Source of the DNA: Cyanobacteria bacterium P01_D01_bin.156
GTDB lineage: Bacteria; Cyanobacteriota; Cyanobacteriia; Phormidesmidales; Phormidesmidaceae
Direction of reading: 5' to 3'
Length of the DNA stretch: 49,656 nucleotides
NCBI GenBank assembly: GCA_039024555.1
Contig: JBCCQQ010000048.1
Location: forward strand, 1-49,656
Part shown: in pieces, positions 5,074-33,000 of the stretch
Layout of the letters: the number at the start of each line of letters is the position of its first letter
How positions within the stretch are numbered: the first letter of the stretch is position 1
Notes under the pieces: model-generated
Told to the model about the DNA's origin: nothing
Database searches by the model: none
What the model saw: the letters and a program-made list of their open reading frames with translations, nothing else
Translations under genes and position numbers: made by a program

Positions 5074-6792
5074 ATGCTCTCCATTGCATCCGTCACTGCA
5101 CACCACGCTGCACACTATTACAGCTCAGACGATATCCATGCAGAGGCTGGCCCCAAGAGTCAGTGGCAGGGAAAAGCGGCCCAAGCGCTAGAGCTAGATG
5201 GTTCAGTGGATGCTGACACCTTTAAAGGTCTGTTATGGGGGCACACTCCCGACCACAGACCTCTCCAAAAAGTATTCAAAATCGGCCACACACCTGGCAT
5301 TGATCTCACCTTCAGTGCGCCAAAGTCCATTAGCTTAGCAACCCTCTGGGGAGGCATTCAGACATTACAACAGGCTCATCATCAGGCTATTCGAGCCGCT
5401 CTTCACCTCATTGAATTATCCAGCGGTACTCGATTCTGGCATGGCAGCACGACCCACCAGCATCGATTTACGCAAACTGGCAATCTTCTCATTGCTCAGT
5501 TTTTTCACACCACCAGCCGTGCCCAAGATCCTCAGCTTCATACCCACAACGTTGTTCTAAACACCACCCACACGGGTCAGGATTGGCGTGCTCTCGATAC
5601 CCGTACCTTGTTCAAACATCGCAAACTTTGGCAAACGGTTTACCATCAAGACCTGGCTATCCATGTTCAACAACTAGGCTATAACGTCACTCGTCATCAA
5701 GGACATTTAGAGCTAGCGGGCTATACTGCAGAACAGCTCGACTACTGGTCCAAACGACGACAGCATATTCTGCAGGCGGTTGGCCCCCATGCCTCACGCA
5801 GCCAAAAGCAACGGGCCTGCCTGCAAACCCGACCTAAAAAACAAGGGGGCTATTCCCTAGCCAACCTGCGAGACCGATGGGATGCTGAAAATCAGCGCAT
5901 GGGATTCGGGGTGAATCATCCGGTACCTGGAGTTTCCAAAGTTCCTGATGTTTGCGATCGCATTGCCGCGGCTAGAGATGCATTGGAACACCTCACCGGT
6001 TCTCTTGGTCTGACCGATAGCGTAGATACGCTGACGCTGATTCAAACCGTCTTTGGTGATGATGGTTGGGGCAATCTAGAGCACTCCTTCGGCTATCAAG
6101 ACCTGGCTCAGGCCATTACTGAGGCAACCGAAGAAGGTCATCTCTACAGCAATAATGGTCAGTTAAGCCGGTCTGCAAAGAGTGCGATATCAACCTCTCA
6201 AAAACTAACCGAAGTCCAGACCACACCCTATCCCTACATAGATGCTGTCGGACAATTTACCCAGGCCATTGCCCACAATACACAAGCACTGCTCATTGCC
6301 CCCGTCGAACATCATAGAAGACTTACCCAAGCCGTTCGGCAACGGCTTAACCAATTGGGCACTTTGCATTCTCCCCACATTGCACGTCAACAAGGAGCAA
6401 ATAAAACCACTGACGTGACAATTTATGGGGGAGATCGGCTATGGGTGCCAGGACGCGCTGGTCCTGTTCTAGTTCAGGTACAAGCCACGGATACTCCAGG
6501 ATTCGTTTATCTCAAACATCGCAATGGTAAGGTCACCGAGTGGAATCTTAGTACGCCCAGAGCGTTTAAATTTGCCTGGGTGCAGCCACCCCATCGACTC
6601 CCCAAACACCGAATCGATGAGATCCACCTTGTTGGGGAGATTCGTGATGACCAACTCCAAAAACTCAGCCAAAAAAGTCGCGCTCCCATCACGGTCTATC
6701 GACCTGAAAAAGAGCGCGACGTTCTGACTCAGCCAAAACACACTGCATTTACCATTCCAAATCTGGATCTGGGTCCGGAGAAGGAGCGATGA
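5074..6792 (+). CDS. MOBF (TrwC/TraI-like) relaxase with degenerate, truncated helicase region
   Basis: AAHYY, WQGKAA, DLTFSAPKSIS, HTTSRAQDPQLHTH (HUH), WSKRR. Confidence 0.93.
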   Translation: MLSIASVTAHHAAHYYSSDDIHAEAGPKSQWQGKAAQALELDGSVDADTFKGLLWGHTPDHRPLQKVFKIGHTPGIDLTFSAPKSISLATLWGGIQTLQQAHHQAIRAALHLIELSSGTRFWHGSTTHQHRFTQTGNLLIAQFFHTTSRAQDPQLHTHNVVLNTTHTGQDWRALDTRTLFKHRKLWQTVYHQDLAIHVQQLGYNVTRHQGHLELAGYTAEQLDYWSKRRQHILQAVGPHASRSQKQRACLQTRPKKQGGYSLANLRDRWDAENQRMGFGVNHPVPGVSKVPDVCDRIAAARDALEHLTGSLGLTDSVDTLTLIQTVFGDDGWGNLEHSFGYQDLAQAITEATEEGHLYSNNGQLSRSAKSAISTSQKLTEVQTTPYPYIDAVGQFTQAIAHNTQALLIAPVEHHRRLTQAVRQRLNQLGTLHSPHIARQQGANKTTDVTIYGGDRLWVPGRAGPVLVQVQATDTPGFVYLKHRNGKVTEWNLSTPRAFKFAWVQPPHRLPKHRIDEIHLVGEIRDDQLQKLSQKSRAPITVYRPEKERDVLTQPKHTAFTIPNLDLGPEKER

Positions 6793-7432
6793 TGCGGGCT
6801 AGCCGCTGGGTCAGCGACTGCCACTCAACAGGTGTTATGTCACAACAGAGAACCTGTTGACCGTCATGTTCATACACCGTTGTTCCATCGGCCCGTGCCA
6901 GCAACAGGCGACCATCCGTTACCGTTAAGGTCAACAAAACACTGGGGTCCGATGGCCAATGGTCTAAATGGGCAAGTACCTGATTCATCAGCTGCTGAGC
7001 AGCCATCATGGTATCCACAGACGTTAGCTGCGATGACAAATAGTCGTCATCCGCTGGGTGCAGACGATTATGCATAATTATCTCGCCTGCTTGGCGATAC
7101 AACAGCTGACCGTCCAGAGTGGTTAGGGTGATGCTTTTTCCAGGGATAGCGTCTAGAACATAGCGTGGCGTGTCAGATACAGGTAAATGCGGCCACGCGT
7201 TCACCAGTCGTTGCATTAAGTCCCTGGCTTGCGTATCTGATATAGGCGGTGTCTCATGGAGACGGTCATCTGCATGGGCGCAAAAGGCCCGAATGCTGGT
7301 AATTTCCAATCCTTGCTGCCGAGCAGCTGCAACATCAGCTTCGGTTAAATCAAAGTGAGCACTCGATTCCACAATGGGAATTTCCTGCACACCTTTAACA
7401 GAGTCATCTGGCCAGGGGTGAGCTGATGTCAT
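6749..7432 (-). CDS. Hypothetical protein with two copies of a ~55-aa module
   Basis: 227-aa ORF directly downstream of the RHH gene; internal repeat LTTLDGQLLY / LARADGTTVY. Confidence 0.65.
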   Translation of the reverse strand: MTSAHPWPDDSVKGVQEIPIVESSAHFDLTEADVAAARQQGLEITSIRAFCAHADDRLHETPPISDTQARDLMQRLVNAWPHLPVSDTPRYVLDAIPGKSITLTTLDGQLLYRQAGEIIMHNRLHPADDDYLSSQLTSVDTMMAAQQLMNQVLAHLDHWPSDPSVLLTLTVTDGRLLLARADGTTVYEHDGQQVLCCDITPVEWQSLTQRLARIIAPSPDPDPDLEW

Positions 7433-7438
7433 CTCGGA

Positions 7439-7819: not shown

Positions 7820-7857
7820 AGGTTCTCCTTGATTTTTGACAAGTAGAAACACCCTGA

Positions 7858-7903: not shown

Positions 7904-8076
7904 GACAGGTGAAGCTATTAAATTCTTGCTGTATAACCGTTGCCATCGTCAGCTACAAAGGAAACACTGACTCAGCCCTAGACGAAATAGGAAACATTCA
8001 CATGTATTTTATAGTAACCGCTTTTTAATCCCAGTGGTGTTCGACATGCCATCATGAATTTTCTTGAATTTTCGCT

Positions 8077-8179
8077 TGGTGGACAGCTCCCACCAAAACC
8101 CATAAAAATGGTGGGCAACTCCCACTAAAACTAATAAATAGGGTGGGCCGCTCCCACCAAAATCACTAGACATGGTGGG
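8077..8179. repeat. Three 19-bp palindromes plus a half-site at exact 32-bp period
   Basis: TGGTGGACAGCTCCCACCA (8077), TGGTGGGCAACTCCCACTA (8109), GGGTGGGCCGCTCCCACCA (8141), TGGTGGG (8173), separated by 13-bp A-rich linkers. Confidence 0.85.
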
Positions 8180-8354: not shown

Positions 8355-8948
8355 ATGACGTTCAATCGCTTTATTCACCCCAAAACTTCTACCATGCTAA
8401 AGCTGTCTACACGATATTTTCGGCTCCCATCTGTTCCTGTTCTCCTTGGAGTGGCCACAGTCTCACTCTTGTTTGATGCATCATTTAGGGGAATTCTGTT
8501 CAGCACTCTGTTAGTTGCCTGTGCTATCGGACTGATTGGAGCAACGTCTCTCGAAGTCAGCTTAAATCAGCTGGCTCGCTGGAGCCGCAAGACTCGTCTA
8601 AGACGTTTGGCACTGACATCATTGCCATCGTTGGTGCTTTTAGTGGCCTACATTTTGACCGACTTGACCTTAGCCCCCGCCCAGGCTCAGTTTTTACAAA
8701 ATGCGGAAACCTTTATTACGACTCTACTCGCCGGTAGTAATGTACCTGCAACAATGGTCCCACTTATCTTTGGTGTACTGCGAGCCATCTTTGTGATCTA
8801 CATTGCGATCGCCGTAATTCGGGTCCTTGTCGCCGCCAGGAATGACGACGATTGGACGACGTTAGCACGGACACCACTCATTATTGTTATGGCAATTGTA
8901 ATTGGTGATCTCATGGCTAACCTCGTGATCGGCGGAGCCGCACCTTAA
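8355..8948 (+). CDS. T4SS pilin-like membrane protein (VirB2-like)
   Basis: First gene of the transfer operon; PAQAQF processing-like site followed by two hydrophobic helices. Confidence 0.6.
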   Translation: MTFNRFIHPKTSTMLKLSTRYFRLPSVPVLLGVATVSLLFDASFRGILFSTLLVACAIGLIGATSLEVSLNQLARWSRKTRLRRLALTSLPSLVLLVAYILTDLTLAPAQAQFLQNAETFITTLLAGSNVPATMVPLIFGVLRAIFVIYIAIAVIRVLVAARNDDDWTTLARTPLIIVMAIVIGDLMANLVIGGAAP

Positions 8949-8977
8949 GCTCTCTTACGTCTCCTCTCCCCAGCGCC

Positions 8978-9298
8978 ATGTCTCCTCCTAAATTTCGTTC
9001 CGTCAACCAAAACCTCGGTGCTCGCCCTCGGCTAGGGCCGGTCCCCGCAGAACTCGTCTTACCCTGGGGTGCCATTGGTGTCTTTACGCTATTAATCTGC
9101 CAACTCTTTTCGCTCAACTGGGTCTGGACCCTCATCTTTATTCTCAGTGGACTGGCGGTTTGGTGGATTCTAACCGGCAACACACCCTGGCGATTTCTGG
9201 CTAAATTTCAAGGTGTTCCTCGCTGGGCCAAAGGCTATGTGTTGTTTGTTCCCTTTTCTTTATCATCTATCTCTTCAACGCGTAAACGCCGTCGATGA
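8978..9298 (+). CDS. VirB3-like membrane protein
   Basis: Small two-TM protein whose stop overlaps the virB4 start (ATGA). Confidence 0.65.
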   Translation: MSPPKFRSVNQNLGARPRLGPVPAELVLPWGAIGVFTLLICQLFSLNWVWTLIFILSGLAVWWILTGNTPWRFLAKFQGVPRWAKGYVLFVPFSLSSISSTRKRRR

Positions 9299-12120
9299 AA
9301 GCAACGACAACGCTCGGCGCTATCCGCCATGCGGGAAAGCGCTACACTCCCATCGAAGATGCTATCCATCTCTCAGACTATCTTGAATTTTGCATCGGCA
9401 AACGTCGCGTCGGTGCTGTCCTTCTCAAACATAAACAACAGCTCCAGTTTCGCTTTGCATTTCGCTCTACCGGCATCCATCCCACCCTCAGTGCCGATAC
9501 CCTTGCGGAACTGTGTGATGCCGTAGAGTCGGGTCTCAAATGTTTTCCAAGCCAAGAGCACATGAGCCTGGTGTTTACCTCCATTGCCTCGGATGCTACG
9601 CGGCAGCGCCAGCTGGACCAGCTCTACAACATTGCTCCCAATGCTGAACTTAAGGCAATTTTAATGAGTGAAAAGGCACGGGTCCAACAGCTGACCCGTC
9701 AGGGTATTCGTAAACCAAAGTCGCTGCACATCTACTGTTCTGCCACCATTGATTCCAATGCAGCGGATACAGAAGATACCATTGAGGCCTTTATCCAAAA
9801 AGTCTCTGCACTGATGGGCAACAAGTGGCTGCAGTTGATTGGCGAAGACCAGCATCAACGCCATGTCAAACTAAGTCGCATCTTTCAAAAAGCATTCACG
9901 GATTTTCAAAATTGGGAACAGCTGCTCACCACTCAAATTGGTCTTGATGTCGTAGCCCTGACTGCTCATGAGTTATGGGCACTGCAGTGGAATGAATTTA
10001 ATACCACTGAACCGAGACCCTTACCGCAGCTGACGGTGTTTGATGGCACCCACTGTCAGTGTCAACAACAGGTTACTGAACATCCAGCCTCCTACATGTT
10101 TGAAACCGCTCACACCGTACCTGTGGCCGACCGTGAGTGGGTGGCCTATCGCGGTGGCTATGTGGGGGTACTGGCCTTTGAGCATAAGCCCGGTGGCTGG
10201 GTGGATAAGGCAGCGCAGATGCGGTATCTCTGGTCAGCCCTGGCCCGTGATGCGGTCTCGGATGTCACCTTGGTGTGTACTCTCTCTAAAGGCAATGCCA
10301 ATTTGATTAAGGCTGACCTACAGCGGTTACAAAAGCAGGCCAATGTGGCACAAACGGTCTCGGCTCGTCATTCTTCTATTGATGTGGTCAATCAATTGCG
10401 GTCGTCCATTGCCACCGAAGCCCAGGCGAAGTTGTACAGCGGGGATATTCCCTTAATGGTATCGCTGGTGGTACTGGTACGACGACAAACCAAGGGAGAC
10501 TTGGATGATGCCTGTCGGTTTTTGATGAACTGTTTCCAGCGTCCGGCGGGTCTAGAACGGGAGCGGGAATATGCTTGGCGTACCTGGCTGCAGTGTCAGC
10601 CTCAGCTCACCCTAGAGCGTCCTTTATTTACACCCTTTCGCCGACAAAAGACTTATTTGGCGAGTGAAGCCATTGGGCTGATGCCCTTACTAATGACCAA
10701 GCAGTTGGACCGGTCTGGGTTTGAACTGATTGCAGAAGAGGCGGGTACCCCCATTCACATTGACCTGTACACCGCCCACCGTAATTTGTTTATTGCAGGC
10801 ACTACCCGTTCAGGGAAATCGGTCTTGGTATCAGGGATTTTAACCCAGGCACTCGCCAATGGCATGCCGGTAGTAGCCATGGACTTTCCTAAGCAGGATG
10901 GGTCATCAACATTTACCGATTACACCGGACTGTTAGGTGAGAATGGAGCCTATTTTGATATTTCAAAAGAGTCCAACAACTTATTTGAAATTCCTGACCT
11001 GCGCAATCTTCCCCGTGATGAACAGCTAGAGCGGATGAAGGATTATAAAAACTTTCTGGTCAGTGCCCTAATGACCATGGTGTTTGGGGCATCCAGTGAA
11101 GAGATGAGCGCTGATGCCCGCATCATGCGTCAGAATATTCGCTCGGTGCTCACCCTAGCACTAACAACCTTCTTTGAAGATGCCACCATTCAGCAGCGCT
11201 ATGATGCGGCCCTAGCGACAGGTGTCGGGTCTGATGCTTGGTCTCAGATTCCCACACTCCGGGACTATCTGGGCTTTTGTACCCAAGAGACCATTGCTCA
11301 GTACACAGAAGTCTCGAAAGGTGCCGAGGATGCGATTGCTCAAATCAATCTACGGCTCAATTTTTGGCTCGATTCTGCAGTGGGTAAAGCCATTGGTCAA
11401 CCCTCCTCGTTTCGTACCGATGCCCAGCTATTGGTGTTTGCCTTGCGTGGTCTGAGTGACGATGAAGATGCGGCAATTTTATCGCTCTCCTGTTATTCAG
11501 CCGCAGTGCGTCGAGCCTTGGCCTCACCCGCATCTATTTTCTTTATCGATGAGGCTCCCATTCTCTTCAAATATGAAGAAGTCGCGGCCCTAGTCGCTAG
11601 ACTTTGTGCCAATGGGGCAAAGTCTGGGGTACGGGTCATCATTTCAGCTCAAGATCCGGTGACCGTAGCCCGCGCGAAAGCATCAGCGGATATTTTTCCA
11701 AACCTATCCACCAAGCTGATTGGTCGGATTCAGCCTGCTGCACAGCAAAATTTTACCAACATTCTCAAGGTTCCCGCTCATCTCATTGCCCGGAATGCCA
11801 GTGAGAGTTTCTTTCCAAAACGGGATGAACTCTACAGTCAGTGGCTGCTAGAAGACACCGGTATCTTTACCGTCTGTCGTTATTATGCACCCCATTTACA
11901 GTTAGCGGCGGTGGCCAATAATCCCGATGAACAGGCCGCCCGTGATGCCTACATGGCCCAGGCAGAGTCTCCTTTAGCTGGACTCGTGGCCTTTTCCCAT
12001 GCATTGGTAACCGCGATTCAACAGGGACGGGCGATTGAATTACCGCAGAAGGCAGCGGGGCTTCCTGTAGCGGCGACTGTTACTGGTGGAGGGAGCAAGG
12101 GTGAGGGGGTGAGGGGGTGA
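9295..12120 (+). CDS. virB4: VirB4 family conjugative ATPase
   Basis: 941 aa; Walker A GTTRSGKS, Walker B FFIDEAP, AKSG..ISAQ. Confidence 0.9.
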   Translation: MKATTTLGAIRHAGKRYTPIEDAIHLSDYLEFCIGKRRVGAVLLKHKQQLQFRFAFRSTGIHPTLSADTLAELCDAVESGLKCFPSQEHMSLVFTSIASDATRQRQLDQLYNIAPNAELKAILMSEKARVQQLTRQGIRKPKSLHIYCSATIDSNAADTEDTIEAFIQKVSALMGNKWLQLIGEDQHQRHVKLSRIFQKAFTDFQNWEQLLTTQIGLDVVALTAHELWALQWNEFNTTEPRPLPQLTVFDGTHCQCQQQVTEHPASYMFETAHTVPVADREWVAYRGGYVGVLAFEHKPGGWVDKAAQMRYLWSALARDAVSDVTLVCTLSKGNANLIKADLQRLQKQANVAQTVSARHSSIDVVNQLRSSIATEAQAKLYSGDIPLMVSLVVLVRRQTKGDLDDACRFLMNCFQRPAGLEREREYAWRTWLQCQPQLTLERPLFTPFRRQKTYLASEAIGLMPLLMTKQLDRSGFELIAEEAGTPIHIDLYTAHRNLFIAGTTRSGKSVLVSGILTQALANGMPVVAMDFPKQDGSSTFTDYTGLLGENGAYFDISKESNNLFEIPDLRNLPRDEQLERMKDYKNFLVSALMTMVFGASSEEMSADARIMRQNIRSVLTLALTTFFEDATIQQRYDAALATGVGSDAWSQIPTLRDYLGFCTQETIAQYTEVSKGAEDAIAQINLRLNFWLDSAVGKAIGQPSSFRTDAQLLVFALRGLSDDEDAAILSLSCYSAAVRRALASPASIFFIDEAPILFKYEEVAALVARLCANGAKSGVRVIISAQDPVTVARAKASADIFPNLSTKLIGRIQPAAQQNFTNILKVPAHLIARNASESFFPKRDELYSQWLLEDTGIFTVCRYYAPHLQLAAVANNPDEQAARDAYMAQAESPLAGLVAFSHALVTAIQQGRAIELPQKAAGLPVAATVTGGGSKGEGVRG

Positions 12121-12196
12121 TTGTGTTTTGCTTTCTCCCTTGCTCCCCTGCCTCTTTCCCCCCTGCCCTCTTTCTCTTTCCTAAATTTCTTTAACC

Positions 12197-13180
12197 ATGA
12201 ACACCCATCCTCACACTAGACGCCGAGTAATCGGCGTTCTCTCCGTCCTATGGCTTTTATCTGTGCCAGCCAGCCCTGCCCAGGCCAGTCTGATTCCAGG
12301 CAACATTGATTTTGGGTCCATTGGCTCCGGTGGTCTCAGTTCCATTATGGGAGATCTCGGCATCAACCTCCCGGATATCTCCGGTGTCCTTGGCGATATT
12401 ACCGCTGGCATTCCAGAGCTTTCCATTGGCGGTCTAGAAGATCTTTTGAATATCGGCGATATTGATCTTGGCAATATCCTTGGAGACATGGGTCTGCCGG
12501 ACCTGAATGATATGTTTGATGACATTCTGGGGGATGTCCTGGGCGGCCATTGTTTTCTTCCCCAGGGCTGTGGTAGCCCCAATGGGGGTGGAGCCAATTC
12601 ACCGGGAAATAATACTCCGCCCGTTCTCTCGGTCTTAGGTGGAGCATCCGCCAGTATCACACCGGGGGTTAATCCCACCGTAGCCGCCAATGTGGATGCG
12701 GTGGGCACACTCACAGATGCGATGACGGCTCTGGGACTTTCTGAAGCGGGACAGGCGGCTACAAAACAACGGCTAACAGCGGCTCAAACGGGGGCAGATA
12801 ATTCTAAAACCCTGGTTGAACAATCTATTGAAGCGTTAGCTCAACAGGCGGAAGCCGCAGAACAGGTGGTCACCTCCACCCAGGAACAAACCAGTACCCA
12901 AGATGTGCTCAAAACCGCACTATCGGGAATGGTGTCTCTCCAAGTGGCCACATCCAGTCAAGTGGCCTATGGGCGTCAACAAAATGCCATTGATACTCAG
13001 CTATCGGTCCTTGATCTTCACTTTGGTCGAGAGATCCGCGATGGCACCTTTGTTAATGGCAAAAATCTCCAGCTCCTAAACCAACAGCTCAACCAATCTA
13101 TCCAGCGAGATATGGCAACCGCAGCAGGAGCCACGGAAGATGCCGCTCGCACTAGCCGATTGGTTCATGTGATGAGGTGA
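12197..13180 (+). CDS. Exported T4SS protein (VirB5/TrbJ-like position)
   Basis: Signal peptide ending PAQA, a G/D/L-rich repeat region and a helical C-terminal half (STQDVLK). Confidence 0.55.
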   Translation: MNTHPHTRRRVIGVLSVLWLLSVPASPAQASLIPGNIDFGSIGSGGLSSIMGDLGINLPDISGVLGDITAGIPELSIGGLEDLLNIGDIDLGNILGDMGLPDLNDMFDDILGDVLGGHCFLPQGCGSPNGGGANSPGNNTPPVLSVLGGASASITPGVNPTVAANVDAVGTLTDAMTALGLSEAGQAATKQRLTAAQTGADNSKTLVEQSIEALAQQAEAAEQVVTSTQEQTSTQDVLKTALSGMVSLQVATSSQVAYGRQQNAIDTQLSVLDLHFGREIRDGTFVNGKNLQLLNQQLNQSIQRDMATAAGATEDAARTSRLVHVMR

Positions 13181-14298
13181 TGTCTATGCAAATGCTCCTA
13201 TTTGGTCAGGTTCCCCAGGTGGTTGAAGACTGCGTCAGTCCCTTTTTTAACAAGAATGACTTTGCCCTCAACTGTGGCACCGCCCTCTCCCAACAAATGG
13301 CCAATGCCTGGGATGAATCCTGGACATTGTTTATCGCGACTCCCAATCAGATTTATATTGCCCTGGTCAATCTGGGCCGATTGTTTGCCCTATTGTCCCT
13401 GGGCTTTTTTATGTTCAAATTTTTGCGGGCAGCGCTGGCGGATGAATCCTATGATGTAATCTCTCAAATGGTGTGGCCGCTTGTCGTGGTGATTTTACTC
13501 GGCAATGATGCCAGCCTACTACGACAGACATCCACCACCCTGCGTAGCTTGATCAATCAAACCAATGCCCAGGTTCTACAAATTGCCAATGCCTCACTTG
13601 TGTATGAAACCCATCTCAATGAGGTATTGGACTATGGCAATGCGGAAAAAGCGATCCGTGATGTACGCGCCCAGTGTAATGGCATCACCAACAATGATCA
13701 GCTGATTGCTTGTTTAGAACAGGGGCAGCAGCAGGCGACGGCTATTGTTGATGGGTTTAATGCTCGCTATGGCACCACCATCTGGGGAAATCGGCTCACC
13801 AATCTGGTGAAAACAGCAATCTCAGATCTTAGGGAGAATCCATTGCTGGCCCTCAATCTCAAAGGGGCCGTCGTCAATCCACTGATTAGTTTAGCCATTG
13901 AAGCCTTTTTAGCCGCCCTCCAAAATGCATTTCAGTATCTTGTCGAGCTGAGCTTTTTGTTAACCGCGATGTTAGGCCCGATTGCATTGGGACTAACGCT
14001 CTCTCCCTTGGGCGGTATTGCTCTCTATGCCTGGATTATTTCATTTCTCTCCGTCGGGCTAGCCAAGCTATGTTTTAACGTGGTCACCGCCATGTTGGTG
14101 ACGATGATTTATCAGGCCGGTCCCCTAGACCCCATGGTCAATATGATTTTGCTCGGGCTTCTAGCCCCTGTTCTTTCCTTTGCCATGGCTGCAGGGGGTG
14201 GAATGGCCGTCTTTAATGGAGTACTCGCTACGGTTCAACAGTTAACCTTTAGCGTGGCCTCCCTGGGATTGAGTGCCTACACGGGGGGTAAATCATGA
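13177..14298 (+). CDS. VirB6-like polytopic membrane protein
   Basis: Multiple TM segments flanking a central periplasmic loop; operon position. Confidence 0.7.
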   Translation: MMSMQMLLFGQVPQVVEDCVSPFFNKNDFALNCGTALSQQMANAWDESWTLFIATPNQIYIALVNLGRLFALLSLGFFMFKFLRAALADESYDVISQMVWPLVVVILLGNDASLLRQTSTTLRSLINQTNAQVLQIANASLVYETHLNEVLDYGNAEKAIRDVRAQCNGITNNDQLIACLEQGQQQATAIVDGFNARYGTTIWGNRLTNLVKTAISDLRENPLLALNLKGAVVNPLISLAIEAFLAALQNAFQYLVELSFLLTAMLGPIALGLTLSPLGGIALYAWIISFLSVGLAKLCFNVVTAMLVTMIYQAGPLDPMVNMILLGLLAPVLSFAMAAGGGMAVFNGVLATVQQLTFSVASLGLSAYTGGKS

Positions 14299-15104
14299 TT
14301 CCTTTTCTTAAGGGTCGTCAGACCATTGCTAATCCTGTGGTCCAGGATTCCACAAACTGGGGGCGAGTCGGACAAAAGAGTTTTCTAGCGATCTTACTGA
14401 TTGCCAATCTCAGCATCTCGGGTCTCTTCGGTCTACTGATTCTCTCCACCCTATCCTATACGCGCCATCTTGCGAAAAAGCCTGCAGCAGCTCTCGTGCA
14501 GCTCACCGATGGCACCAGTATTCGGGTAACCGAAACGCCTAACCAGCAGCGAGAACCGGAAATTATTCGCAAGTTTGTGAGCGACAGTCTCATCTACTTG
14601 ATGAACTGGTCTGCGGATCTACCCGCCGCTGAACCCACCAGCAAGTTTGATACCGCTGCAACTGTCCCGCAAGATACGGGCATTGAGGTTACCCTCGCCG
14701 ATGGGTTTACCAAAAAGGTGACCACACCCGCTTGGCAAGCGTCCTTCACCCTAGAAGAAGAATTTCGTACTGAGTTTCTTCAAAAGCTCGCCACCATGAC
14801 CCCGGAAGATATCTTTGCTGGTCATAAAGAAGTGGTGCTTAAAATCCGCGAGGTGGGCTATCCGGCGGACCAAGATCCCGGTTCCTGGAGTGTGGATGTG
14901 GTGGCCGATTTGATGGTCTATTCGCCCCAAACACCCACCGGTAAGGCCGTTCCCTTTAATAAACGCATCTACGTTCAATCCATTGATGTCCCAGCCCCAC
15001 CGGAGACGCTAACGCCCCTAGCCACGGCCATCTATGCGGTACGACGGTCCGGGCTAGAGATTACGGGCATGCGAGATCTACAGCTGCAAGAGTTTACAGA
15101 ATAA
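14295..15104 (+). CDS. VirB8-like bitopic protein
   Basis: One N-terminal TM followed by a periplasmic domain; operon position. Confidence 0.6.
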   Translation: MIPFLKGRQTIANPVVQDSTNWGRVGQKSFLAILLIANLSISGLFGLLILSTLSYTRHLAKKPAAALVQLTDGTSIRVTETPNQQREPEIIRKFVSDSLIYLMNWSADLPAAEPTSKFDTAATVPQDTGIEVTLADGFTKKVTTPAWQASFTLEEEFRTEFLQKLATMTPEDIFAGHKEVVLKIREVGYPADQDPGSWSVDVVADLMVYSPQTPTGKAVPFNKRIYVQSIDVPAPPETLTPLATAIYAVRRSGLEITGMRDLQLQEFTE

Positions 15105-15113
15105 CGATTAGCC

Positions 15114-16625: not shown

Positions 16626-16637
16626 GGAGGGGTCACG

Positions 16638-17414: not shown

Positions 17415-17446
17415 TCACGCCCCATCCCTTTAGCCCACTCTCTCCC

Positions 17447-22977: not shown

Positions 22978-24414
22978 ATGCAAACGGGATATACCCAACT
23001 GGATGCTGAAGAACGTGAAGCGGTCCGTACCAATGGGGTGATTACGGGTCAATTGTTAACAACCGCAGCTCGACTCACGCGGCAGGCCCTAGACCGGGGT
23101 CTAGAGTGGTTACAAAATAGAACTCGGCCCCCCACGGAATTGGAACTTACCCGGTCTCAACAACAGGCGGCGGATATTATTGCGGTTACCACGGAGCGCT
23201 GTGGGGACCTTCAACCGGATGGTTCAGTTGCTTTTGAAACCGAACAGTATCGCTTTTCGGTTACCCCCGATGGCATTTATTCAGCCGTTGATAAAAACCT
23301 GGACTGGACTGTGTTTGAATTTCAGCGAGACCGGGCGGCGGTACAGGAAAAAGCAGCGGCACTGGTGGATTTAGCGGCGGATTATGGAGACTATACCCCT
23401 GAAGCAGCGGCAGCAGCCACCAGTGGTGCCATCGATGATTTGTTTACGGTGATCGACGACCCTGAATTGGACATGGAACATTCTGTTGCAGCCTCACCTG
23501 TGGTGGCCACACCACTCCCAGAACCAGTGGTGAATGACGGGCCATCCACGGTCGCGCCATCTCAGGTGATGCCCATTGTCACAACGGAACTCACTGAAGA
23601 AGCAGAAACAGTACCGGCAGTAGAGACCACTGCAGAGATTGGAAACAGCCATGATTCTCAGACCATGGCGGCCTTCTTTTCGAATTTGGTGGATACCCAG
23701 GGGCAGATTGCTGAACCAAATGACGGAACCGAGGGTGAATTAGCACCTGAGACCGTCAATAGTCCTGAAGCACCCGTACTCGACGATCCATGGATCTCAG
23801 AAGAGTCTGTAGAACCCACCGCTGAGATCGCAGACGAGCTGGTGGAAACCTACGGTGAACCGATTCACCCTAAACCGCCTAAGCGCTATACCGGAGAAAC
23901 ATTTGATATTCTCCAAAATGACACCCATTACGACGTCCGTGATAAGGATAATCAAACGCTCTTTAGCTTTGAAAAGCAGGGCAATCAGTATCACATTCTC
24001 CAGGACAATCTCAGTGACAAACAACGGCAACAGTTTTCTCGGGTGCATACCCGCACTCAATCGGTTGGCCTAAGTCAGATAATGGCTGACCCCACCGGCA
24101 ATAGTCAGCTGCAGTATCTTGAAGACCTAGCCCCAGAAGGCAGTAAAGCGGTTTCCTTTGCTCACCAACAACTTGACCTAGCCCATACGAATCAGTTAGA
24201 CACTCAATCCCAAAGCATTCTTCGTCAAGAGGATCGTTCGCTGGTGATTTTTAACAAGACCGATAATCGCATCGTTGCCTCATCGACTGCAAATGGTGAG
24301 ATTTCATCTCAGATGACGCCCAATGAAAAGGCTATGTTTGCCCAGGCATGGCAGCAAACGACATCGCAACAACATAGCCCACAGCCGTCTCGCAGCGTTG
24401 ATCTGGAGCGCTAA
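22978..24414 (+). CDS. Hypothetical acidic protein with three repeated modules; candidate T4SS substrate
   Basis: GGAG RBS; 478 aa; ends SRSVDLER. Confidence 0.75.
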   Translation: MQTGYTQLDAEEREAVRTNGVITGQLLTTAARLTRQALDRGLEWLQNRTRPPTELELTRSQQQAADIIAVTTERCGDLQPDGSVAFETEQYRFSVTPDGIYSAVDKNLDWTVFEFQRDRAAVQEKAAALVDLAADYGDYTPEAAAAATSGAIDDLFTVIDDPELDMEHSVAASPVVATPLPEPVVNDGPSTVAPSQVMPIVTTELTEEAETVPAVETTAEIGNSHDSQTMAAFFSNLVDTQGQIAEPNDGTEGELAPETVNSPEAPVLDDPWISEESVEPTAEIADELVETYGEPIHPKPPKRYTGETFDILQNDTHYDVRDKDNQTLFSFEKQGNQYHILQDNLSDKQRQQFSRVHTRTQSVGLSQIMADPTGNSQLQYLEDLAPEGSKAVSFAHQQLDLAHTNQLDTQSQSILRQEDRSLVIFNKTDNRIVASSTANGEISSQMTPNEKAMFAQAWQQTTSQQHSPQPSRSVDLER

Positions 24415-25587: not shown

Positions 25588-28500
25588 ATGGATTTCGCTG
25601 CCCAACAAAAACTTGTCACCGCATTCCAGGATTACTTCCTGGCTGGTAACGGCTTCTCCACTATCGTGCAGGCACGACAGTTTGCTAGTGACCAGTTGGA
25701 GCAGGTATTAGATCCGCTATCGTCTGATCATAAACAGGTGGATGAGGGGATCGAGAAGGCGATTGTTCGCACGGCTCGACAGTTGATTTTGGGGACTGAC
25801 TCGCTCGTACCATCCGTCACTACCCATCAGGCCTTTGACCGGCTAACGGAATTACTCAGTCGTCAACCTCGACTAGCGGTGCGCACATCCACATCCATGG
25901 CCCAGCAGGCCTACAGTACGCCCATTCCCATTGCCTATTTTGCTGCCACCCTAGCAGGCATTGATGCGAATACGGTGGTTTATGAACCCACTGCAGGCAA
26001 TGGTGCTCTTTTAATCTCGGCAAATCCAGCCCGAGTGATTGCCAATGAGTTAAACGATGATCGGTTTAGAGAACTACAGCATCAAGGGTACGCCCAGCTG
26101 ACACAACAGAATGCCTGTGACTATTCTCCCGCTCAGGGCATAGTGGATGTTGTGATTACTAACCCACCGTTTGGTCGTACCCGAGATCCGACAACCGGAC
26201 AAAGCCAACGGTTCACCATTGGCGATACCTGGAGTGCCCAGTTAGACCATGCCATTGCGTTTAAGGCCCTCGATGCTCTCAAAGAGGACGGTCGTGCTGT
26301 CCTAATTATTGCGGCTCCGCATCGTCGCTCTCAACAGATTACCGATGAGTATCGTGCTAACCAGTACAACGAACGCGAAACCCGTGGATTCTTTTTTAAT
26401 CTCTATCGCCATTACACCGTTACGGATCATCTCACCCTCGATGGAAACCTCTATGCCAAACAGGGAGCTGGGGCTGATATTGATTTGATTGTGATTCAGG
26501 GCCGACGGGCTGCGCGCGATGGCCCCTTGATACGAGCCTTGCCCGCCGTTGATGTGCCTCCCATACTCACTACCTTTAACCAGCTTAAGGAGAGATTGCC
26601 CAATGTTTCCCTATCCCACCTATCCCAAACTTTGGAGGCCCCAGGAGAATCCAGACATTCTGACGGTGAAGGTACCCCAGAGCCATACTCAGCTAACGGA
26701 CCGCATTTACCGAGAGCTGATGGAGGAACGGCTGAGCTGGCTGATATGGGAAGCGATCTCAACCAACGGTCACAGTCTGATGGAGATTCACCAAACCCTG
26801 AATCAGTTTCTCTCCCAAACAGCACCCACCCAAATATCACCGGATCTGCCGAAGGACGAAGACGATCAGATTCAATGGTGTCAGGACTGGGCACAGACAC
26901 TGGTCCAGGGGAACGAGATCGTTCGAATGACTCTAAATACAGCGGAGCTGACCATCGTCCCACTGACGCCAGACAGCTCCCACTATTCTCAAGGACTGGA
27001 GCTACACGACAACACTACCCTACACATCTGGCTCGATACGGTGAAACCCTAGCCATGGTTGACTCTATTTCTACCCCTAAAGAAACCACCCAAGTCCCTT
27101 ATCAACCGCGCAGTCAGGGCCGTTCCATGGACACGCTGATTCCGCGTAATATGGCCAATTCGGCTCAGGTGGCGCTGATGCGCTTTGAGCAACAGCATGG
27201 CAATATCGATGAGTTTGTTCGCACTAGTCTGGGCTACAGCTCTATCGGTGAACTCCACCAGCGGTTATACGCGGAACAAATCGATACCATTGGCCTCGCC
27301 ATTAGTAATCTCAACCGGGGTAATGGCTTTGTCATTGGTGACCAGACGGGCATTGGTAAAGGCTGTCAGTGTGCGGCCATTATGGCCTACAGCACCCGCC
27401 AGGGAAAACCGGTGGTGTTCTTTACTCAGAAAAATGCGCTGTACAAGGATATTCTGCGGGATTTGGAGACGATCGGCGTACGAGATTTTGCTCCCTTTGT
27501 CACCGACAGCAATGCCAAGATTGAGCTGGGCAAAGGGGCCATGCTACGCACCGGCAGCCATGGTCAACAAGAACAAGAGATGAACCGCCTCATGGGAATG
27601 GGGAATCTTGGGTCCTATGATGCGGTGTTTACCACCTACAGCCAGATTCAAACGGTAGCTCAAAAAGAACCGCTGCGGCGACACTTTTTAAGATCGCTCG
27701 CTGAACGGGGTGCTATTTTTATCTGCGATGAAAGTCACGAGGCGGGCGGCTCTCCCCAAACGGGCTGGCAGATTAATGGCGCACCGCCAAACCGGGCTGA
27801 CTTTATGCGCGAGCTGATCGATACGACTCTGGCCAGTGGTGGTGGGGTGATCTACAGCAGTGCCACCTATTCCAAACGCCCTGATGTAATGGACCTTTAT
27901 GCCCGCAGTACTGACCTACGCTACGCGGTGGGGAAACATCGGTCTTTGGAAGCTACGTTACGGGTGGGTGGAGTACCGCTGCAGCAGGTGATTGCAGCTA
28001 AATACGTAAAATCGGGGCAGATGATGCGCCGGGAGCGATCGTTTGAAGGAGTCTCTTTTGACACGCTGACGGTCCCGGCTGATCAGGAAACGGCGGACCA
28101 GTTTTCGGCGGCGATGCGGGCGATTAATGCATTTGACCGGGCGAAACAAAAAGAGGTTAAAAAGCTCAGCAAGGAATTGCGCAAAGAAGCAAAACAATTG
28201 GCTTTGGATAACGCTATCGGACAGGTAGGCGTTAAATCGACAAACTTTACCAGCCTGATGCACAACTGCATTGAGCAGGGGTTATTAGCACAAAAAGCAG
28301 AGGCCACGGTTCAAACAACAATTCAAGAACTTGAAGCGGGACGTAAGCCGGTCATTGCCTTGGACAATACCATGGGAGCCTTTATTGATGCCTGGGCAGA
28401 CACCCATGATGCGAAACCGGGAGACCGGGTCAATATTACCTTTTCAGATCTCTTGGCCCGTTACCTAGAGCGCTCTCGCGATATTGCCATTACCAACCAT

Positions 28501-31500
28501 ACGGGACGACGAGACCGTAGACCCATGACCGATGAGGAATTGGGTGTTGATGGTTTGGCGGCCTATCTGGAAGCAAGAGACATTATCGAGGATAGCGATC
28601 TCTCTCAGATTCCCATTAGCCCCATTGACTATATTCGAGGCCGTTTAGAACAGGCGGGCTACACCACCACTGAAGTCACGGGACGCAAATCGGTGCTCGA
28701 CTATGATGCTGATGGCTCAGCGGTGTACAAGACTCGTTCCGCCAAAGAGATTTCGACCAATGGCAAAATTGCAGCAGTTAATGACTTTAACAGTGGTCAG
28801 GCCGATGTGATTATCATCAACCGCTCTGGGGCTACGGGGATTTCACTTCATGCTTCAGAAACCTTTGATGACCAGCGGCCACGGGTGATGATTGTGGCCC
28901 AGGCTAGCCGAGATATCAATACCTTTATGCAAACCCTCGGGCGAATTCACCGCACGGGTCAAGTAGAGCTGCCGAATTACAAACTTCTGATAACTGATTT
29001 ACCGGCTGAAAAACGACCGGCAGCTATCCTCAGCCGCAAGATGGCCACCCTTAATGCCAATGTCACGGCGGATCGGGAGACGGCGACGTCTATCCAGGGT
29101 GTCGTGGACTTTTTTAATGAGTATGGCGAGACGGTCATCACCCAGTTGCTTGAAGAGATGCCAGAACTCAATGAGAAGCTGGATGATCCGTTGGGTCGGG
29201 CCAATGACAATGATTTAGATCTGGTGTCTAAAGTAACAGGGCGTTTGCCATTGTTGCCGGTAGCGGAACAAGAACGCACCTATCAGCTGATCGAGACCGG
29301 ATATGCCGACCTGGTAGCCCAAAAGGAAGCCATGGGTGAAAGTTTGCTCCAGGCAGATCAGCTGGATTTGGATGCTCGCACTATTGCCCGCATGGAGGTG
29401 GTTCCGACAGACACCCAGTTTCAAACGGAATTTAGTGGGCCGGTGTATCTGGAAGTCATTGATGCAAAATCTCTGGGTAAGCCGTTGACCCAGGTGCAGG
29501 TGGCGAACCAGGTACGAGAGTTTTTTGAGCTGCCCCTCAGTCAACAGGTGGCCGAGGCTCATTGGGTCCGGCTGAAAGATCAAGGGAATGAGCGGGCAGC
29601 CACCATGATTGAATCGGTGACCGCCAGTACTCAACATTACAAAAATGGAAAACTGGCAAGCCTAGAAGTACTCAAAAAACAACAATTAGAACATCTGCCT
29701 GAAGGGGCTGAAGCGCCAGCACAAGAGAAAATCGACAAGCTCACCCAGAAGCTGGATGCGCAGCTGGCGTTTGTCACCAAACAACTCAAAGATTTTCCGA
29801 TGGGCACATCGGTCAAGATTACGCGGCAGCAGAACCAGACCACCGCCGATACGTTTTATGGAGTGATTACGGGAGTGGACCATCGAGATCGCGGAAGTGC
29901 TCCATCAGTCCCCAGCTCCTGGCATCTACGGGTGGCCCTTAGCAATGGCGATGTGAAATCCATGGCGATTCCGTTATCCGCTCTCAATAGTACTCAGCGT
30001 AAAGGTAAAACCGTTGGAGAAGCACTGACCATGGAGCCTGTTGAGCAGGATATGTGGACGGGGAAATCAATCTACGAAATGTTTGATCTCCAGCAGCAGG
30101 ATGCGCGGCAGCAGCGACAGGTGTTGACGGGTAATTTGGTGAAGGCGTGCGATCGCTATCCCGAAGGTAAGCTGCTCAACTTTACCGACCACAAAAATCG
30201 TATTCGTCAGGGGCTATTGCTACCCAAGTCCTTTGATATTGCCGATAAGCTCAGAAATGAACCGGTGGTCTTTGAAACGGCCCAGCAGGTCCATACGTTT
30301 TTAACGGAGGTCACTGAAGGACGCGGTGGCCTCAAAACCTTGGATGGAAATTTGTCCATTCGTCTGCACGGCAGTGGAGAGGGTTTGATTTTAGAAGCGC
30401 CTAGGGCCAAGGAAACGGGAGGAAAATACTATCTCAATTCAAGTTTGATTGACCGCATTGGCAAGGACTTTGTCTCCCGTGGCGACACCATGCGGGTCTT
30501 GGTACCGCCTGAGAATGCAGAGCGTACGTTGAATTCCATCATTACCCTTAATCCCATTGCCTGTGTCGATCCACGGTATTTACCCAAGGCCCGAGAACAC
30601 ATGGGAGTGACCATTCCAGAGTTAGAAACAGCGGCCGATGGTCAAGTGTTAGACGTCGAAGATGAGTTTATTGAAAGCAGCGGGGTGCCCTATGTGGACG
30701 ATCCAACACCGCAAGATATTGAGTCGTTGGAGGCATTATTTGCTCGGGGGGAGGATGCGAACTTACTCTCCGAGCAAGCATCAGAATCTTCACCAGTGGA
30801 GGAATCAGGTCCTACTGACGAGACTCCTGAACCAGCTCCTATCATTGAAACGCCTCAAAGTTCAGACAACCCATCCTCTATCCAACAGGTTGCTCTGAGC
30901 AAATACCAAACACGCATGGCAGAGAAGTTTATTTCTAAATTTCTCCATGAGGCAGACCTGGCAGAAAAAGTGGTGGCAGGAGACGACTTTCATCTGAAGA
31001 TTGAGAATGAGCCGTATATTCCGCTTGTCGTCGAAGCGCACAAACTAGCGGATGATCAGTATCAGCTCTATCTCACCCATTACATCGACATCAATGGCGA
31101 CCTCGTCCACGATGGGGAAATGGTCTTCAACATCCTGTCTGATGGCATTCTTCAATTGGATCAGACCGCTACTCAAGATCCTTTTCGCGGTGGAGAACAT
31201 CGAGTCTATGACGGTGGGGACCGATACTTTGCCAAACGGTTTGCGATGAATATTCGTGCCCAGGGCTTTGGTGAAGCGGCACGGGCACAGCTGGACCAGG
31301 TAACTATTACCCATGACGAGGAACCAGACGTTAATCCTGAAGAACACACTCTAGAATCTTCTACACCAGAAGCGATTCAGCCGTCTCTGTTGGATGGACC
31401 AGCAGGGATTGGAGATTATTCCCTAGATACAAACGGCGCAGATCCCAGTTGGGGGAATCCTGAACCAACAGAACATACCCAACACCATGACCAGCAAATA

Positions 31501-33000
31501 CCAAATCTAGAGCCACAGGACATCCCTCCACTCAAACCCTTGAGTGCTGATGCTCAACGAGACATGGCTCAACAGGATCGGGAGGCCTTAATTACCCAGG
31601 CACGGGCCATGGATTTAGAACAGGTTGCCCTATCCCTGGGCTTAGAGCGCAACACCTCTGACAAATCTAAATGGCACTTTGGCAGCCATGCGATTTCCAT
31701 CTCGGCTAACAAAGGTCTTTTTAATGATTGGCAGGCCCATAAAGGCGGTAGTGGGGCCATTGACCTAGTACTCCATATCAATGAGGACTGGGACTTTACG
31801 CAAGCGGTGGAATGGCTCACGGGCGACTCCATGGTATCGGTTCCATCGTTCCAGGAAGCTCAGGCCATTTTGCAAAAAGCCCAGCAGCCGACCGTCGAAC
31901 CGCTCATTATTCCGAAAACGGCATCGGCGAATTGGAGCAAAGTCCACGCTTATCTCACCCAGGACCGACGGATTCCAGCTGACATTGTTCATCAAGCTTT
32001 TCAGCAGGGTGTTGTCTTTGCCGATGAGCGCAGCAATGCGGTATTTACCATGCAGCAGCTACGGCAGGAGAGTCTCACTGGAGAACCCTCTGATAGTCTT
32101 CGAGCAGGAGCCATTACGGGCTATGCCCTAAGAGGCACGGCTGGAGAGTATAAGCATATCGCCAAGGGCTCCTCAAAATCAGACGGGTGGTTTCTGTTTC
32201 ACTCAGGTCAAAATGCCCAGCGCATCGTGATCACGGAATCGCCCATTGAGGCGTTATCATTGGCGGCCATGGAGCGCAGTGACACCACCCTCTATCTGGC
32301 CCTTAATGGCAATAGTCCCTTACCGGTCGAGCAGCTACAGCACCACATTGCCCAAGGTGGCGAAGTGATGACGGCTTTTAACAACGATGCGGCTGGCATG
32401 AATCTTAGTACGCGAGTGCTAGAACACTTACCTGAGGCAACAACCCTTTATCCAGACAGTGATTTTAACGATTGGAATGAGCAGCTATGTCATCAGCCAG
32501 AGATCTATCAACATCCAGAACAGGATCTTCTCACAGCTCCGGCCCTTGATGATTTGCGAGATTGGTATCGCAAGGCCGCATTCATGCAGCGGGGACCAGA
32601 ACACCAGGCCCAGATTGCTCAGGTAGGGCGTGGTGAACGAGACTTTATAGAGCGGGATGCAGCCGCGATGGCCGCCGATAACCGGGCCTTTGCGCTATCC
32701 GAACGCTTTATTCAGCATGCACAGCACATGCTGGCCCAGTGGGGGCAATCCCAGGGGGATGGGACATTGGCCATCGATATTGATCAGTATCATCTGCGCG
32801 GTTCGCCCGATGGGCTGAGTCTTTCAGTAACAACCGATGACAGTAAACCGTTGCTCCAGGTGGAGCAGGGGACACTCAACCACGTCACGATTACACCTAA
32901 TGACGCTCAGCGTTTTGAAACCCTAGGTGCTCAAGCGCGACAGGAACATTTACAAACACACCGAACTCACAGTCCACCCTCGAATGAAATAAGCCGATGA
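25588..33000 (+). CDS. Polyvalent protein: N6-adenine methyltransferase + strawberry-notch SF2 helicase + DUF6908-like + DUF3991/Toprim-like domains
   Basis: YEPTAGNG and ITNPPFG; GDQTGIGKG, DESH, SSATY, SGATGISLHA, QTLGRIHRTGQ; LKIENEPYIPLVVE..HY..NGDL; GSGAIDLV, ITESPIEALS, DWNE. Confidence 0.92.
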   Translation: MDFAAQQKLVTAFQDYFLAGNGFSTIVQARQFASDQLEQVLDPLSSDHKQVDEGIEKAIVRTARQLILGTDSLVPSVTTHQAFDRLTELLSRQPRLAVRTSTSMAQQAYSTPIPIAYFAATLAGIDANTVVYEPTAGNGALLISANPARVIANELNDDRFRELQHQGYAQLTQQNACDYSPAQGIVDVVITNPPFGRTRDPTTGQSQRFTIGDTWSAQLDHAIAFKALDALKEDGRAVLIIAAPHRRSQQITDEYRANQYNERETRGFFFNLYRHYTVTDHLTLDGNLYAKQGAGADIDLIVIQGRRAARDGPLIRALPAVDVPPILTTFNQLKERLPNVSLSHLSQTLEAPGESRHSDGEGTPEPYSANGPHLPRADGGTAELADMGSDLNQRSQSDGDSPNPESVSLPNSTHPNITGSAEGRRRSDSMVSGLGTDTGPGERDRSNDSKYSGADHRPTDARQLPLFSRTGATRQHYPTHLARYGETLAMVDSISTPKETTQVPYQPRSQGRSMDTLIPRNMANSAQVALMRFEQQHGNIDEFVRTSLGYSSIGELHQRLYAEQIDTIGLAISNLNRGNGFVIGDQTGIGKGCQCAAIMAYSTRQGKPVVFFTQKNALYKDILRDLETIGVRDFAPFVTDSNAKIELGKGAMLRTGSHGQQEQEMNRLMGMGNLGSYDAVFTTYSQIQTVAQKEPLRRHFLRSLAERGAIFICDESHEAGGSPQTGWQINGAPPNRADFMRELIDTTLASGGGVIYSSATYSKRPDVMDLYARSTDLRYAVGKHRSLEATLRVGGVPLQQVIAAKYVKSGQMMRRERSFEGVSFDTLTVPADQETADQFSAAMRAINAFDRAKQKEVKKLSKELRKEAKQLALDNAIGQVGVKSTNFTSLMHNCIEQGLLAQKAEATVQTTIQELEAGRKPVIALDNTMGAFIDAWADTHDAKPGDRVNITFSDLLARYLERSRDIAITNHTGRRDRRPMTDEELGVDGLAAYLEARDIIEDSDLSQIPISPIDYIRGRLEQAGYTTTEVTGRKSVLDYDADGSAVYKTRSAKEISTNGKIAAVNDFNSGQADVIIINRSGATGISLHASETFDDQRPRVMIVAQASRDINTFMQTLGRIHRTGQVELPNYKLLITDLPAEKRPAAILSRKMATLNANVTADRETATSIQGVVDFFNEYGETVITQLLEEMPELNEKLDDPLGRANDNDLDLVSKVTGRLPLLPVAEQERTYQLIETGYADLVAQKEAMGESLLQADQLDLDARTIARMEVVPTDTQFQTEFSGPVYLEVIDAKSLGKPLTQVQVANQVREFFELPLSQQVAEAHWVRLKDQGNERAATMIESVTASTQHYKNGKLASLEVLKKQQLEHLPEGAEAPAQEKIDKLTQKLDAQLAFVTKQLKDFPMGTSVKITRQQNQTTADTFYGVITGVDHRDRGSAPSVPSSWHLRVALSNGDVKSMAIPLSALNSTQRKGKTVGEALTMEPVEQDMWTGKSIYEMFDLQQQDARQQRQVLTGNLVKACDRYPEGKLLNFTDHKNRIRQGLLLPKSFDIADKLRNEPVVFETAQQVHTFLTEVTEGRGGLKTLDGNLSIRLHGSGEGLILEAPRAKETGGKYYLNSSLIDRIGKDFVSRGDTMRVLVPPENAERTLNSIITLNPIACVDPRYLPKAREHMGVTIPELETAADGQVLDVEDEFIESSGVPYVDDPTPQDIESLEALFARGEDANLLSEQASESSPVEESGPTDETPEPAPIIETPQSSDNPSSIQQVALSKYQTRMAEKFISKFLHEADLAEKVVAGDDFHLKIENEPYIPLVVEAHKLADDQYQLYLTHYIDINGDLVHDGEMVFNILSDGILQLDQTATQDPFRGGEHRVYDGGDRYFAKRFAMNIRAQGFGEAARAQLDQVTITHDEEPDVNPEEHTLESSTPEAIQPSLLDGPAGIGDYSLDTNGADPSWGNPEPTEHTQHHDQQIPNLEPQDIPPLKPLSADAQRDMAQQDREALITQARAMDLEQVALSLGLERNTSDKSKWHFGSHAISISANKGLFNDWQAHKGGSGAIDLVLHINEDWDFTQAVEWLTGDSMVSVPSFQEAQAILQKAQQPTVEPLIIPKTASANWSKVHAYLTQDRRIPADIVHQAFQQGVVFADERSNAVFTMQQLRQESLTGEPSDSLRAGAITGYALRGTAGEYKHIAKGSSKSDGWFLFHSGQNAQRIVITESPIEALSLAAMERSDTTLYLALNGNSPLPVEQLQHHIAQGGEVMTAFNNDAAGMNLSTRVLEHLPEATTLYPDSDFNDWNEQLCHQPEIYQHPEQDLLTAPALDDLRDWYRKAAFMQRGPEHQAQIAQVGRGERDFIERDAAAMAADNRAFALSERFIQHAQHMLAQWGQSQGDGTLAIDIDQYHLRGSPDGLSLSVTTDDSKPLLQVEQGTLNHVTITPNDAQRFETLGAQARQEHLQTHRTHSPPSNEISR
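26603..27052 (+). CDS. Nested overlapping gene (+1 frame, 149 aa) inside the methyltransferase-helicase linker
   Basis: AAGGAG at 26587-26592, ATG at 26603, TAG at 27050-27052; globular-looking sequence where the host frame is disordered. Confidence 0.65.
   Translation: MFPYPTYPKLWRPQENPDILTVKVPQSHTQLTDRIYRELMEERLSWLIWEAISTNGHSLMEIHQTLNQFLSQTAPTQISPDLPKDEDDQIQWCQDWAQTLVQGNEIVRMTLNTAELTIVPLTPDSSHYSQGLELHDNTTLHIWLDTVKP

Follow-up and report, generated by a model that had tools for sequence, protein, structure and literature searches.

The window analysed here, a stretch of 49,656 nucleotides from Cyanobacteria bacterium P01_D01_bin.156 (GCA_039024555.1), is spanned in its entirety by one contig (JBCCQQ010000048.1), and the nearest named homologs of the proteins it encodes come from Leptolyngbya, Leptothoe and Adonisia. 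It contains a conjugative transfer locus (Table 1) in which a relaxase gene, a mating-pair operon and virD4 are accompanied by three genes whose products carry a recurrent protein module. The locus fits the MPF-C class of type IV secretion systems (T4SS), combining a cyanobacterial VirB4 and syntenic class-specific genes with VirD4, and its homologs are arranged alike on Nostoc plasmids, PCC 7120 plasmid gamma among them. The labels VirB6 and VirB8 given to operon genes are assumptions based on gene order.

Other features were noticed around these genes. Upstream of the relaxase gene, degenerate direct repeats of ~33 bp together with inverted repeats (window 4768-5002) are candidate oriT or accessory-protein sites, and upstream of the T4SS operon three repeats spaced by 32 bp, each with a short palindrome (window 8078-8179), form a candidate operator; the 95-aa ORF overlapping the latter (8009-8296) may not be a gene. 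A gene for a PD-(D/E)XK, Cas4-like nuclease lies near the transfer region (window 1611-2411). The cargo region 3' of the 2470-aa gene (window 32997-45192) encodes DUF6753, ABC/M1 peptidase, aldolase and Dev exporter functions, and contig C103 of the same genome has a stretch paralogous to it.

Table 1. Genes of the transfer locus and module copies, with window positions.
Feature	Position	Strand	Basis
MOBF relaxase, 572 aa; module not detected	5074..6792	+	Pfam TrwC E 3.5e-65; NCBIfam MobF above cut-off; no module match in profile tests
227-aa protein, two divergent modules and tail; convergent with relaxase	6749..7432	-	ORF, HHalign, AF2
Module A2, residues 143-215 of 227-aa protein; most divergent copy	6788..7006	-	HHalign 96.6% to A1, 13% to general profile; predicted elements as in A1
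Module A1, residues 66-141 of 227-aa protein	7010..7237	-	HHalign 83% and 94% (two profiles); AF2 helix-4 strands-helix
MPF-C-type mating-pair genes	8355..20074	+	Pfam/NCBIfam; homologs colinear on Nostoc plasmids and at other cyanobacterial loci
VirB4	9295-12120	+	Within MPF-C-type mating-pair genes
VirB10-like gene	15114-16625	+	Within MPF-C-type mating-pair genes
GH19/M23 hydrolase	17447-20074	+	Within MPF-C-type mating-pair genes
VirD4 coupling protein, presumed receptor	21190..22965	+	Pfam TrwB_AAD_bind, TraG-D_C, T4SS-DNA_transf above cut-off
478-aa protein, three modules and tail, directly 3' of virD4	22978..24414	+	Profile matches
Module B1, residues 63-133 of 478-aa protein; C-terminally incomplete	23164..23376	+	HHalign 95.7%; 88.7% to C
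Module B2, residues 281-362 of 478-aa protein	23818..24063	+	HHalign 98.3%; AF2 pLDDT mostly >90
Module B3, residues 390-463 of 478-aa protein, followed by 15-residue Gln/Ser/Pro-rich tail	24145..24366	+	HHalign 95.5%; AF2
2470-aa polyvalent protein: adenine methylase-like, strawberry-notch helicase, DUF6908, DUF3991, Toprim, terminal module	25588..33000	+	Pfam
Module C, residues 2373-2452 of 2470-aa protein, followed by 18-residue tail	32704..32943	+	Foreign-only HMM domain E 1.5e-5; HHalign 96.9%

Six copies of one domain

The initial annotation had claimed related segments at the C-terminus of the 2470-aa protein, three times in the 478-aa protein and twice in the 227-aa protein. All six were found where it had placed them, their homology is above chance, and they are copies of one domain of ~75-80 residues. 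The ~55 aa first attributed to the unit proved too short, since it starts with a helix, and the proline of the motif then proposed is not conserved, the consensus being L-x3-D-x3-F. The B1 copy covers positions 1-59 of the 78 in the profile and lacks the last part.

A hidden Markov model (HMM) was built from 29 segments, all taken from other genomes and picked with a window-seeded profile. Among the 40,889 six-frame ORFs of the whole genome it returned five at E<0.001: the 478-aa protein (E 2.7e-10), the 2470-aa protein (E 2.7e-6), one paralog, and two genes at a second T4SS locus. The best reversed-sequence decoy reached E 1.1. When family sub-alignments were compared by HHalign with a profile of 204 segments, those of B1, B2, B3, C, A1 and A2 scored 95.7, 98.3, 95.5, 96.9, 94.0 and 13.4%, compared with 0.2 and 0.5% for two control regions; among the segments of this profile are some from moderately close relatives of the 478-aa protein. 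Because the foreign segments were gathered with window-seeded profiles, neither test is fully independent. Direct comparisons among the six segments were mostly weak, with two of the 15 pairs above 85% (A1-A2 96.6%, B1-C 88.7%) and two near 37-39%. A model of the six segments had as its best non-homologous match among the 40,889 ORFs the protein directly after the VirD4 of the second locus (E 6.8e-7). From this protein the search could be extended to DUF3854 proteins of Nostoc encoded near virD4, and from these to the module in 26 of 401 cyanobacterial genomes. Whole-protein searches reached less far: as a family alignment the 478-aa protein matched only its source genome among the 401, its tblastn search against plasmids gave no match, and a 'longer' search that used the protein of the second locus was equally empty.

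Membership is weakest for the 227-aa protein. No profile that excluded its own sequence recovered it in hmmsearch, and A2 is linked to the others through its sister repeat A1 only, which could mean that the likeness is partly due to chance and that these repeats form a separate family. We consider this extremely unlikely in view of the HHalign score of A1, of the score of 32 obtained by a merged A1+A2 profile, where 20 column-shuffled profiles did not exceed 11.5, and of the Atlas structure search, where the nearest entries of both the 227-aa and 478-aa proteins were the same three cyanobacterial clusters (802, 674 and 104 aa), with scores under the tool's bar that make them leads only. A counterpart of the 227-aa gene is similarly placed, with the relaxase gene and the T4SS operon on either side, at two loci of one other genome (G432). 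Proteins encoded after virD4 also have a shorter repeat in their N-terminal half, which was considered as an explanation for the 227-aa protein and discarded (HHalign <2%).

The expectation of a common predicted fold held in both AlphaFold models, compared by the order of their elements: a helix, a meander of four to five strands, a helix and then a short polar tail. The 227-aa protein was modelled as two helix/4-strand/helix units (mean pLDDT 73.5), and residues 281-478 of the 478-aa protein as two helix/5-strand/helix units (pLDDT 91.4, pTM 0.84), in which B2, B3 and their conserved linker are predicted to pack as one confident unit, with a tail of pLDDT <50. Known families offered little guidance. 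Neither Pfam nor NCBIfam had a match for the 227-aa or the 478-aa protein; for 16 modules Pfam returned nothing meaningful, with no BID family at E<=1 and no match to LPD families; and a PDB sequence search of the module found none at E<0.1. Foldseek found no PDB or viral structure at E<=0.001, which does not show that the fold is new. The best VIA fold-search scores (Z 4.6 and 4.5) are within the noise described for the tool, and the solved XVIPCD domain is absent among the fold matches listed, for queries that were two-module models.

Carriers of the module and their genomic setting

A profile search of 1.84 billion representative sequences retrieved 325 protein clusters at E<=0.001, and the carrier statistics rest on the best 150, of which 147 were new; 143 were recovered on rescoring with the foreign profile, including the probably false P0084, and four repeat proteins were not. 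In these best clusters the last module ends at a median of 22 aa from the C-terminus (<=40 aa in 111/143, >100 aa in 23/143), two to four copies are present in 79/143 carriers, and a membrane-like stretch was seen in only 3/142. Pfam named 30 of the 147 best matches and left 117 without a family. The named ones comprise three relaxases (two MobA_MobL, one TrwC), five DUF3854 and two Prim-Pol proteins (hence seven primase-type carriers), one helicase, two PIN proteins, nine peptidoglycan hydrolases or binding proteins, one GHL10, two TSP3 and five false matches (P0049, P0084, P0134, P0145 and P0176), which were dropped. Among the genome matches, an amine oxidase (G056) and G072 were likewise dropped as false, and the G314 match is an unassigned fragment.

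The nine peptidoglycan-related carriers showed no hydrophobic N-terminal stretch in a crude hydropathy test, and some may be incomplete at the start. Both metal motifs are kept in four of their six M23 domains, and the two carriers with an organism name are cyanobacterial. Fusions of hydrolase and module include WP_218082506.1 and MGF1482436.1; at three cyanobacterial plasmid hydrolase loci inspected, none of the hydrolases had the module. Among the genome loci, five large module proteins of 1590-2188 aa have a DxDGD motif and are polymerase-like. Taxonomically, the module spans Gloeobacterales to Nostocales, with one carrier on plasmid gamma of Nostoc PCC 7120, a laboratory strain (WP_044520325.1).

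Individual carriers have unusual architectures. A 1605-aa DNA polymerase A-Toprim fusion with a terminal module lies directly upstream of virD4 (L081:3139-7953, genome G392); a WD40 protein with a hydrophobic N-terminus has the module inserted between propeller blades (L055:838-2811, G316); and one ORF starts like the protein in the VirB10 position and runs into a module (L031:1866-3197, G180), suggesting a deletion in the operon. By eye, several large proteins have a second motif, helical in nature, just ahead of the module (window 32539-32682; C-terminal regions in L022, L024 and L056). The same motif ends a methylase-helicase of genome G264 that has no module, and a further helical domain is found at the end of other relaxases. 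The C-terminal cassettes look interchangeable.

Many carriers are DNA or RNA enzymes, and the module may resemble the meander-plus-helix repeats of PC4, Whirly or Pur proteins. These traits would fit a domain that binds single-stranded DNA or RNA and aids the handling of the transferred strand, and so would weak fold matches to the C-terminal domain of RecA (Z 4.6, rmsd 3.8, 60 aligned) and, in a test of the Whirly fold, to MRP1/2 (Z 3.8, rmsd 9.9, 65 aligned). Both matches are within tool noise, however, 39 modules have an average net charge of -0.9, most of their conserved positions are hydrophobic core residues or glycines, and fusion to cell-wall hydrolases would be senseless for such a domain, all of which makes this function highly improbable.

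The anticipated enrichment at conjugative elements was found, as hits concentrate near conjugation genes. By hand count, 22 of 25 non-PIN genes outside the window whose surroundings were inspected are within ~5 kb of virD4, a virB operon or a relaxase gene, or encode the relaxase itself, the remaining three being a contig-end fragment, one large protein and the WD40 protein. VirB4 was present in 14/14 genomes with non-PIN matches vs 55/401 overall, related genomes not being independent and inflating any test on these figures. Only 16 of the 55 VirB4 genomes had a module match and 39 had none, at limited sensitivity and with at most 13 candidates scored per genome. When 72,556 plasmids were searched with one module, nine records were obtained, all cyanobacterial, and in the five inspected the carriers were two relaxases, two proteins encoded just 3' of virD4 and one methylase-helicase. 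The second T4SS locus of the same genome has the module in the same two gene positions. That MPF-C locus, on the largest contig (G000:C1:26190-49633; L006, L032), has its VirB4 split over two ORFs and encodes a short protein with a methylase only that ends in a module. Nearness to conjugation genes fits any accessory role in conjugation.

The commonest carrier, which consists of tandem modules with low-complexity linkers and is encoded right after virD4, invites one such reading, namely that of a donor-side adaptor or regulator whose domain docks proteins on VirD4, the relaxosome or another module, most carriers staying in the donor. The 79 carriers with at least two copies and the predicted packing of B2-B3 and their linker agree with it. 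Single terminal copies on relaxases, primases and hydrolases that have no signal peptide are nevertheless more easily read as export tags, and the donor cytoplasm holds no substrate for a peptidoglycan hydrolase, so that we regard an adaptor function as unlikely.

PIN-toxin fusions occur in 12 genomes, eight of them without VirB4 by the query used, and at the four of 12 loci inspected no T4SS marker was seen within 20 kb. These loci (L041-L052) are toxin-antitoxin-like pairs of HTH_17 and PIN_3 at chromosome-like sites, with the module at the toxin C-terminus and the tail feature lost. They may be domesticated remnants, because toxin-signal fusions arise repeatedly (PMC5675462, as far as its available text describes them), or a sign of a second function.

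Tails, relaxases and a putative signal for the coupling protein

The similar short tails that had been attributed to the relaxase and to the three module proteins are all in place, but that of the relaxase does not share the hydrophobic residue found at position -3 in the other three. Leu, Ile, Met or Val occupies this position in 12 of the 15 carriers where the feature was first noticed and in 9/18 and 53/108 of later sets, compared with 26% of genome ORFs, none of the 12 PIN fusions and eight of 20 relaxases. The last 20 residues have net charges of 0, +1 and -2 in the three window proteins and a median of +1 in 108 carriers, with Gln accounting for 14% of residues in carriers, which makes the tails Gln-rich and near neutral. 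Such tails might be the whole signal, the domain having another job (stability, chaperone binding or oligomerisation) and travelling with them by gene-end recombination. Similar tails do end relaxases devoid of the module, as the count above shows, and the module-less methylase-helicase of G264, and PIN fusions retain the domain and lose the tail. Against this, the domain stays beside the tail on very different cargo from Gloeobacterales to Nostocales, and the XVIPCD signal requires both parts, according to the accessible text of PMC8740702; we therefore hold a tail acting alone to be decidedly unlikely.

Relaxases are established as obligate VirD4 substrates (PMC8600333, in the portion available). 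The window's own MOBF relaxase has no module by profile searches, and no solved relaxase translocation domain matched its C-terminal half by sequence. Elsewhere, a MOBP relaxase of Leptolyngbya NIES-3755 carries the module (E 2e-7) and one MOBF (TrwC) relaxase among the best cluster matches ends in it. A set of 20 relaxases was scored, the window's included, and the module was found in 6/11 MOBP other than that of Leptolyngbya, 0/6 MOBF and 0/3 MOBV, the first of these figures not being a frequency, as ten of the 11 MOBP were chosen from 446 matches of a module-bearing query. Most of the scored relaxases have no module, which is therefore not required for conjugation. The most telling case is the MobQ relaxase that ends in a module (E 8e-11) on the 14.7-kb Crocosphaera plasmid pC: none of the 18 annotated genes of this plasmid encodes a T4SS component, and MobQ, having no transfer channel of its own, would therefore depend on recognition by a foreign coupling protein.

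The initial annotation had proposed a coupling-protein recognition module on co-delivered proteins. The shared predicted fold, the linkage to conjugation genes and the presence of the module on MOBQ, MOBP and one MOBF relaxase elsewhere speak for this proposal, whereas the window relaxase without the module, tails that are not basic and PIN fusions in genomes without VirB4 do not agree with it as first worded. The architecture found is that of a C-terminal folded domain followed by a tail on unrelated cargo that includes relaxases. XVIPCD and BID provide precedents for a folded domain plus tail (PMC8740702, PMC5675462, in the text available). The module and its tail probably constitute a bipartite substrate signal read by VirD4 for export through cyanobacterial MPF-C systems, analogous to BID and XVIPCD and apparently unrelated to them. 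In such a model VirD4, the coupling ATPase, would be the docking site of the folded domain and the unstructured tail, often hydrophobic at -3, would start threading, after which the cargo would enter the recipient together with the DNA. There, the methylase-helicase-primase might copy the arriving strand or shield it. The two proteins with little beyond tandem modules, of 478 and 227 aa, could be substrates, pilots or regulators occupying VirD4, and the window's relaxase would use another signal.

A broader and more tentative possibility, which we would not favour at present, is that the module marks the substrates of MPF-C machines that inject into other cells, besides DNA-handling proteins, RNA-polymerase-like enzymes, cell-wall hydrolases (M23, SLT and VgrG3-like muramidase) and PIN toxins, the last at least in ancestral systems. 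If so, cyanobacteria would possess a contact-dependent antibacterial T4SS function together with a portable protein-delivery tag. A defined 75-residue tag would in turn permit a direct test of whether and what MPF-C systems export, with the profile listing candidate substrates, and might be put to use in delivering protein or DNA from one cyanobacterium to another.

Comparison with known secretion systems and signals

The model locus of the MPF-C T4SS is that of Nostoc PCC 7120 plasmid alpha, for which eight component profiles are described in PMC4027160, as far as its available text goes. The window resembles it in its cyanobacteria-specific VirB4 locus, its VirB10-like and VirD4 genes and its compact operon. 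The same text (2014) states that its authors found no experimental MPF-C studies, and it describes no substrate signal; a literature search covering few subscription papers found nothing on this domain or on any MPF-C substrate signal. The 2470-aa protein, with its methylase, SNF2 helicase and Toprim domains, fits the polyvalent proteins of conjugative elements, a class proposed to be delivered with DNA in the accessible part of PMC5512222. The term 'secretion signal' is absent from the main text of that paper, and its external alignments could include an unnamed family covering the module.

Judged by predicted topology, which differs, and by sequence searches of Pfam and PDB, which gave no match, the module belongs to neither BID nor XVIPCD. 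BID, as presented in the available text of PMC5675462 and PMC8740702, combines a bundle of four helices with a tail of positive charge and is found in Bartonella Beps, VbhT and alphaproteobacterial relaxases. The module is similarly common to relaxases and other cargo, occurs in repeated copies and has separately been fused to toxins of toxin-antitoxin systems (FIC and PezT for BID, PIN for the module), but it is predicted to be a beta-meander with four to five strands per unit (pLDDT 80-96) and its tail is near neutral. XVIPCD is described in the available text of PMC8740702 as a folded alpha/beta domain of ~80 residues, with the order alpha-alpha-beta-beta-beta, and a Gln-rich flexible tail, both parts being needed; the X-Tfes of Xanthomonas include cell-wall hydrolases such as TfcB (PMC11253643, likewise in the part available). 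The module differs in its predicted alpha-beta4/5-alpha order, in its one to four copies and in its occurrence also on relaxases and primases. It shares with XVIPCD a folded domain of ~80 residues, a C-terminal position on unrelated cargo that includes cell-wall hydrolases, and a Gln-rich flexible tail, and in their tails the module proteins are closer to XVIPCD than to BID as these are described in that text.
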